A stretch of DNA of 64,000 nucleotides, taken from sequence record PQ666542. The stretch is one strand, 5' to 3'. A model generated the notes under the pieces. The model did not search any database. It was not told the origin of the DNA and was given only the letters and a program-made list of their open reading frames with translations. Of this stretch, positions 29,060 through 29,311 are shown piece after piece. Source of the stretch: Shigella phage sb4. The first letter of the stretch is position 1. Every line of letters begins with the position of its first letter. Position numbers and translations under genes: made by a program.

Positions 29060-29311
29060 TCATTCCTTCTCTCTGATGATAATTACTTGATTTTGCTGTG
29101 TTGACTTTTTAGTTTCACCCGCAATTGACCAAATAAATGTAATAAACCAACCAATAATTGACCAGTTAAACAGTAAAGATGTAAAAAAGATTCCTACTGT
29201 CGATTTTTACCCACGCATCAATGCGATGAACCATGGAAGCATGTATATAATAATATCCAACACGCCTGAAACTAAAACCAAAAAAATTTAACCAGCTACT
29301 AAAGTTTCCAT
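29060..29311 (-). CDS. imm: immunity protein Imm (83 aa) with two in-frame TAA codons (29288-29290, 29207-29209)
   Basis: hand-translated METLVAG*IFLVLVSG...MRG*KSTVG...; two TM segments; position between 42 and 43. Confidence 0.55.

Follow-up and report, generated by a model that had tools for sequence, protein, structure and literature searches.

Phage T4 encodes the superinfection immunity membrane protein Imm (NP_049660), the closest described counterpart of the locus analysed here, which has the same length (83 codons) and the same place between gene 42/42.1 and imm.1/gene 43. The locus lies in a stretch of 64,000 nucleotides, hereafter the window, from Shigella phage sb4 (PQ666542). Judged by its sequence, the window covers the opening 64 kb of an assembly of a T4-like phage (Tequatrovirus), co-linear with the genomes of phages pSs-1, sb1, sb2 and sb3. 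Shigella phage pSs-1 (NC_025829) is 97.0% identical over the window and co-linear with it, with an offset of at most 4 bp at imm, Shigella phage sb2 (PQ666540) is 96.6% identical at exactly the same coordinates, and roughly 500 other Tequatrovirus records are ~95–96% identical to the region. The source study describes four lake-water phages from Kolkata, with sb1 (PQ666539), sb2 and sb3 among them, sequenced from a PCR-amplified enzymatic Illumina library in a NovaSeq run, assembled with SKESA and annotated with Prokka (PMC11993411). The two worst of these genomes have 285–291 predicted proteins and the other two 254–255; PQ666542 (TMC4), with 291, is the most fragmented of the four (PMC11993411).

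The imm locus of the window comprises the following features.

29060..29311, minus strand: orthologue of imm (membrane protein for superinfection immunity), 83 codons and a TGA stop, interrupted twice (from translation, Pfam and synteny)
29288..29290, minus strand: in-frame TAA at imm codon 8, ancestral TCA (Ser), G>T at plus-strand position 29289
29207..29209, minus strand: in-frame TAA at imm codon 35, ancestral TCA (Ser), G>T at plus-strand position 29208
29256..29281, minus strand: imm nonsynonymous transversions A19D (29256) and M11L (29281), common to the window, sb1 and sb2

Translation of 29311..29060 on the minus strand gives METLVAG*IFLVLVSGVLDIIIYMLPWFIALMRG*KSTVGIFFTSLLFNWSIIGWFITFIWSIAGETKKSTQQNQVIIIREKE*, where the second segment is IFLVLVSGVLDIIIYMLPWFIALMRG and the third opens with KSTVGIFF... 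and closes with ...REKE*. The original prediction had been read by hand from the bases as METLVAG*IFLVLVSGVLDIIIYMLPWFIALMRG*KSTVGIFF..., which matches this translation exactly, and TAA is present at both of the codons that it named, 8 (29288–29290) and 35 (29207–29209). It had further attributed the absence of the gene from the list of open reading frames to segments shorter than 60 residues; the segments between the stops are 7, 26 and 48 codons long and none reaches 60 residues. Each stop differs from a conserved TCA by one coding-strand substitution, C>A.

That this is a T4-type imm gene between genes 42 and 43, as had been proposed, is upheld by both Pfam and synteny. With the stops read as Ser, the product scores 58.1 bits against PF14373 (Imm_superinfect; cut-off 27.9), the C-terminal 48-residue piece on its own still scores 32.8 bits, and the codon 35 TAA falls within the Pfam domain (residues 22–63). 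By tblastn, the product is 94% identical to pSs-1 Imm, and the syntenic gene is annotated as imm in pSs-1, T4, sb3 and vB_SsoM_113. Like T4 imm, the gene lies on the early-gene strand between gene 42 and imm.1/gene 43; its neighbours are gene 42 (dCMP hydroxymethylase, 28166–28906) and a small 42.1-like ORF on one side, and imm.1/gene 43 on the other. An uninterrupted frame of ~83 codons for a two-helix membrane protein is not found at imm in the window, and no in-frame start follows codon 35 on the minus strand of 29060–29311. Taken as written, the gene cannot yield a full-length protein.

End-to-end alignment with T4 Imm, the check proposed with the original prediction, shows 76 of 83 residues to be identical when the stops are counted as differences, the seven differing positions being S8*, M11L, A19D, S35*, A44T, A71T and P73Q. 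The window therefore has TAA in place of Ser8 and Ser35 of T4, so that both stops stand at conserved Ser codons. We compared Imm from 17 other sequences (sb3, pSs-1, vB_SsoM_113, T4, ECp13, IME339, YwIITB1, five IMG/VR contigs and five metagenome contigs), in which codons 8 and 35 both specify Ser, written TCA where the DNA was compared directly. Residues 1–68 are near-invariant across this set, with G16C (ECp13) and T/A at position 44 as the exceptions. M11L and A19D occur in none of the 17 and were seen, beyond the window, only in sb1 and sb2. The codon 8 TAA is common to the window and sb1 only, and the codon 35 TAA to the window, sb1 and sb2.

Among the best 30 of 103 phage records matching the imm stretch, only sb2 and sb1 exceed 94.8% identity; the other 28 are all at 94.8%, and in most of them an intact imm is annotated. 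The TAA-35 variant has no match in IMG/VR and none in the metagenome contigs, where the Ser version, run as a positive control for codon 35 only, has five matches each; a 24-mer carrying D19 has none in IMG/VR. Within the comparison set, Escherichia phage ECp13 (PP274704), an unrelated Indian T4-like phage, carries the unique G16C in Imm and has 77 private transitions and 51 private transversions in 25 kb, and its record may have a quality problem similar to that described below.

We consider it probable, at roughly 85%, that the imm TAA codons are substitution noise in a low-quality Tequatrovirus assembly and not a biological feature. The observations that carry this reading come from the whole window, onto which we projected 127 CDS of pSs-1, taken as a clean reference.

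1..64000, no strand: substitution noise over the whole window, with 36 in-frame stops spread over 29 of 127 CDS, frameshifts in six CDS and loss of the natural stop codon in two
32043..32045, minus strand: in-frame TAA at codon 178 (GAA>TAA) of DNA polymerase gene 43, the same lesion in an essential gene
33025..33588, minus strand: orthologue of the clamp-loader gene 62, interrupted in frame at codon 45 (TGA) and codon 143 (TAA)
21152–21154, minus strand: GAA>TAA at codon 152 of the dCTPase gene (gene 56-like), also in sb2

The original prediction had treated imm as an isolated oddity, which does not hold: the same type of lesion occurs in 29 of the 127 genes, essential replication genes included. 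The noise is window-wide, looks unselected and strikes essential genes. Interrupted genes include those for gp43, gp44, gp62, gp47, rIIA (two stops) and dda, together with a topoisomerase subunit, nrdD, endonuclease VII and dCTPase. The essentiality of the interrupted replication genes is known from T4, and a T4-like phage bearing such a load would therefore probably not be viable. Frame-shifting indels affect six CDS, nrdD (45016–46832) among them, and natural stop codons have been lost in the homologues of pSs-1 CDS 10991–11410 (TAA>AAA) and 12908–13408 (TAA>CAA). In sb2, the adjoining codon 151 of the dCTPase gene has likewise changed from GAA to TAA.

Private changes, taken from an alignment of the first 50 kb of five genomes (window, sb1, sb2, sb3 and pSs-1), separate these assemblies clearly. 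The private transition/transversion ratio is 7.85 in pSs-1, which has no interrupted genes, whereas it is 0.83 in the window with its 36 premature stops; sb1, sb2 and sb3 give 1.17, 2.34 and 5.2, respectively. The 308 private transversions of the window are dominated by T<->A (155) and C>A/G>T (112), and those within a single CDS are spread over the three codon positions as 96/87/93, compared to 3/4/20 in pSs-1. Their coding effects are 206 missense, 19 nonsense and 50 synonymous. When the same transversions were placed at random on sites of matching trinucleotide context, the simulation yielded 26.7 ± 4.4 nonsense changes (18.4 TAA, 4.1 TGA and 4.3 TAG), compared with 21 observed (18, 2 and 1). 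AT-rich codon usage and the mutation spectrum account for the bias towards TAA. The scarcity of TAG, considered as a biological sign, was not significant after trinucleotide matching (P = 0.06).

The 19,916 codons of the window's genes contain 36 stops; at this rate, 0.15 stops are expected in imm, and the probability of at least two is 0.010. A Poisson model scaled by gene length over the 127 genes, however, predicts 28.6 genes with at least one stop and 5.8 with at least two, and 29 and 7 were observed; the imm stop pair is therefore unremarkable within the window, and is remarkable only against other phage genomes. Counts, spectrum and distribution per gene all fit an unselected model, so the stops are what unselected noise yields, and lesions are spread regardless of gene essentiality or codon position. 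Given these lesions across the window, the biology implied by the original prediction, either a pseudogene or read-through, is unsupported.

Read-through would require that TAA/TGA be decoded as sense, either under an alternative code or through a suppressor tRNA of the phage or the host. Recoded phages, in which TAG or TGA is reassigned, have suppressor tRNAs and in-frame stops in many genes, and stops in many genes, essential ones included, are indeed the pattern of the window, with TAA accounting for 31 of the 36 and TGA for 5. The stops nevertheless replace nine different ancestral sense codons (GAA, AAA, TTA/TTG, TCA, CAA, GGA, TGG, CGA and TAT), so that no single reassignment would restore the proteins, and codon usage combined with the mutation spectrum predicts the excess of TAA. 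Normal gene ends in the window keep TAA and TGA, as in pSs-1. No tRNA was found in the 64-kb window; the tRNA cluster lies outside it. In sb1, which has both imm stops, ten ordinary tRNAs are annotated, none of them with a tta, tca or cta anticodon. The stops come together with frameshifts and 206 unselected missense transversions, and the close relatives sb3 and pSs-1 are free of such stops; we regard read-through as vanishingly improbable.

A real mutation load would also look unselected, as recent mutations do. It could come from a mutator gp43 in a population kept by co-infection or complementation, or from a mutagenised or damaged stock, and the window gp43 (29880–32576, minus strand) does carry a suggestive change: I113T and E114V convert the ExoI motif from NCDIEV to NCDTVV, with loss of the catalytic Glu of the 3'-5' exonuclease. 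This gp43, however, is itself interrupted by E178* and has 22 further changes, making 24 amino-acid differences from pSs-1, where sb3 gp43 has two. The motif is kept in sb1, sb2 and sb3, and yet a load of this kind is present in sb1 and sb2 too. New mutations would stay at low frequency, consensus at 36 nonsense sites would need a bottleneck, and probably no viable virion could pass it. We therefore consider a real load very unlikely.

The sibling assemblies resemble the window in having the same start coordinate, transversion-rich noise and split essential genes, with 27 in-frame stops within the first 50 kb of sb1 and seven in that of sb2; sb3 and pSs-1 have no such in-frame stops. Most stops differ between the window and sb1/sb2, and the noise of sb1 is mostly C>A/G>T, whereas that of the window has a large T<->A component besides. 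Structural genes are split as well at 64001–84000 of sb1, where the tail tube terminator gene for gp3 appears as 3_1/3_2 and the baseplate gene for gp6 as 6_1/6_2, and the noise therefore reaches beyond the early region.

Some of the changes recur at identical sites in these siblings. Derived changes polarised with four outgroups over 25 kb (window 20000–45000 versus sb1 and sb2) include 17 transversions common to the window and sb1 (eight in this pair only, nine also in sb2), compared with ~0.3 expected if independent. Most of these are nonsynonymous C>A/G>T changes, some fall in the essential helicase gp41, and four of the 17 are in imm. The derived imm changes private to the window, sb1 or sb2 are all transversions, as are those shared by all three or by the window and sb1. 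Of the 39 shared transitions in the four sharing classes listed, 38 are synonymous or lie between genes, a pattern that fits real common ancestry. Random independent errors fail to explain a codon 8 stop shared with sb1 and a codon 35 stop shared with sb1 and sb2. The excess of shared transversions therefore points to a strongly site-specific error process, to non-independent libraries or assemblies, or to some real shared alleles. Part of the noise is thus tied to particular sites, unless the libraries or assemblies depend on one another.

With real shared alleles, imm would be a true pseudogene. A lake-water lineage comprising the window, sb1 and sb2 would have lost imm through S35*, with M11L and A19D then arising under relaxed selection, S8* following in the window/sb1 branch, and the other noise being separate. 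The gene is not known to be essential for T4 growth, and the codon 35 TAA, A19D and M11L form a haplotype common to three assemblies. Ordinary synonymous transitions nearby (for example at 29165) are shared too, so that the three assemblies are genuinely related here, and the changes common to all three outside imm are mostly natural-looking (eight synonymous or intergenic versus three nonsynonymous). Against this, the four shared imm changes are all transversions, where the natural transition/transversion ratio in these genomes is 5–8, and they fall in residues 1–68, the part that is nearly invariant in the 17 other sequences. The variant is missing from the 28 other phage records among the best 30 of 103, from IMG/VR and from the metagenome contigs. 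The window and sb2 also share the nonsense change at dCTPase codon 152, and nonsynonymous transversions in helicase gp41 are shared as well, so recurrent artefacts clearly occur. With 28 other genes interrupted, the window shows neither a natural spectrum nor an otherwise intact genome. On balance, loss of imm in this lineage seems to us unlikely, and we hold the same doubt about the narrower proposal that the codon 35 TAA with M11L and A19D is a natural imm-null allele of a lake-water T4-like lineage and the rest artefact. Were that allele genuine, these phages would have given up Imm-mediated superinfection exclusion; real imm stops would amount to a natural loss of superinfection immunity, of modest interest.

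Returning to substitution noise as the preferred explanation, the assembly would bear some 0.5–0.6% substitutions never filtered by natural selection, most of them transversions (T<->A, C>A/G>T), that became fixed in the consensus as errors of library preparation, sequencing or assembly. A number of these would strike TCA, GAA, AAA, TTA and CAA codons and turn them into TAA, and each imm stop would be one such event, with TCA changed to TAA both times. The actual phage almost certainly has an uninterrupted imm coding for all 83 residues.

T-even DNA carries glucosyl-hydroxymethylcytosine, on which enzymatic library preparation and PCR work poorly. A plausible physical cause would be a low-complexity, PCR-amplified Illumina library made from such DNA, or else low coverage. 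In a low-complexity, duplicate-rich library, polymerase or damage errors could pass the k-mer thresholds of the assembler, and modification-dependent misincorporation could make errors recur at identical sites. A de novo Illumina/SKESA assembly would not normally show 0.5% consensus errors, which counts against this account. All four Kolkata assemblies share their first base with the pSs-1 record, which is circularly permuted, and this common start suggests reference-guided ordering or scaffolding rather than purely de novo contigs.

Three more specific error signatures were considered and rejected. Copying of a neighbouring base, by dislocation or homopolymer extension, showed no enrichment (z = -1.7). 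No sharp trinucleotide signature emerged either: C>A showed a mild preference for NCT, and T>A for TTA. Regional hot spots such as shared low-coverage zones gave no correlation between the window and sb1, and a moderate one between the window and sb2 (rho 0.34–0.57), which is not decisive.

Noise interrupts roughly a quarter of the genes and adds some 200 spurious missense changes to every 50 kb, and the records of the window, sb1 and sb2 are unsafe for inferring pseudogenes, recoding, protein variants or selection. Errors that recur at identical sites in independent assemblies of glucosyl-hydroxymethylcytosine DNA would be relevant to those who sequence modified phage genomes. Stop-codon-recoded phages have in-frame stops in many genes, as the window does; unlike them, the window has stops in place of nine different codons, no suppressor tRNA within its 64 kb, frameshifts alongside the stops, and near-identical relatives that are stop-free.
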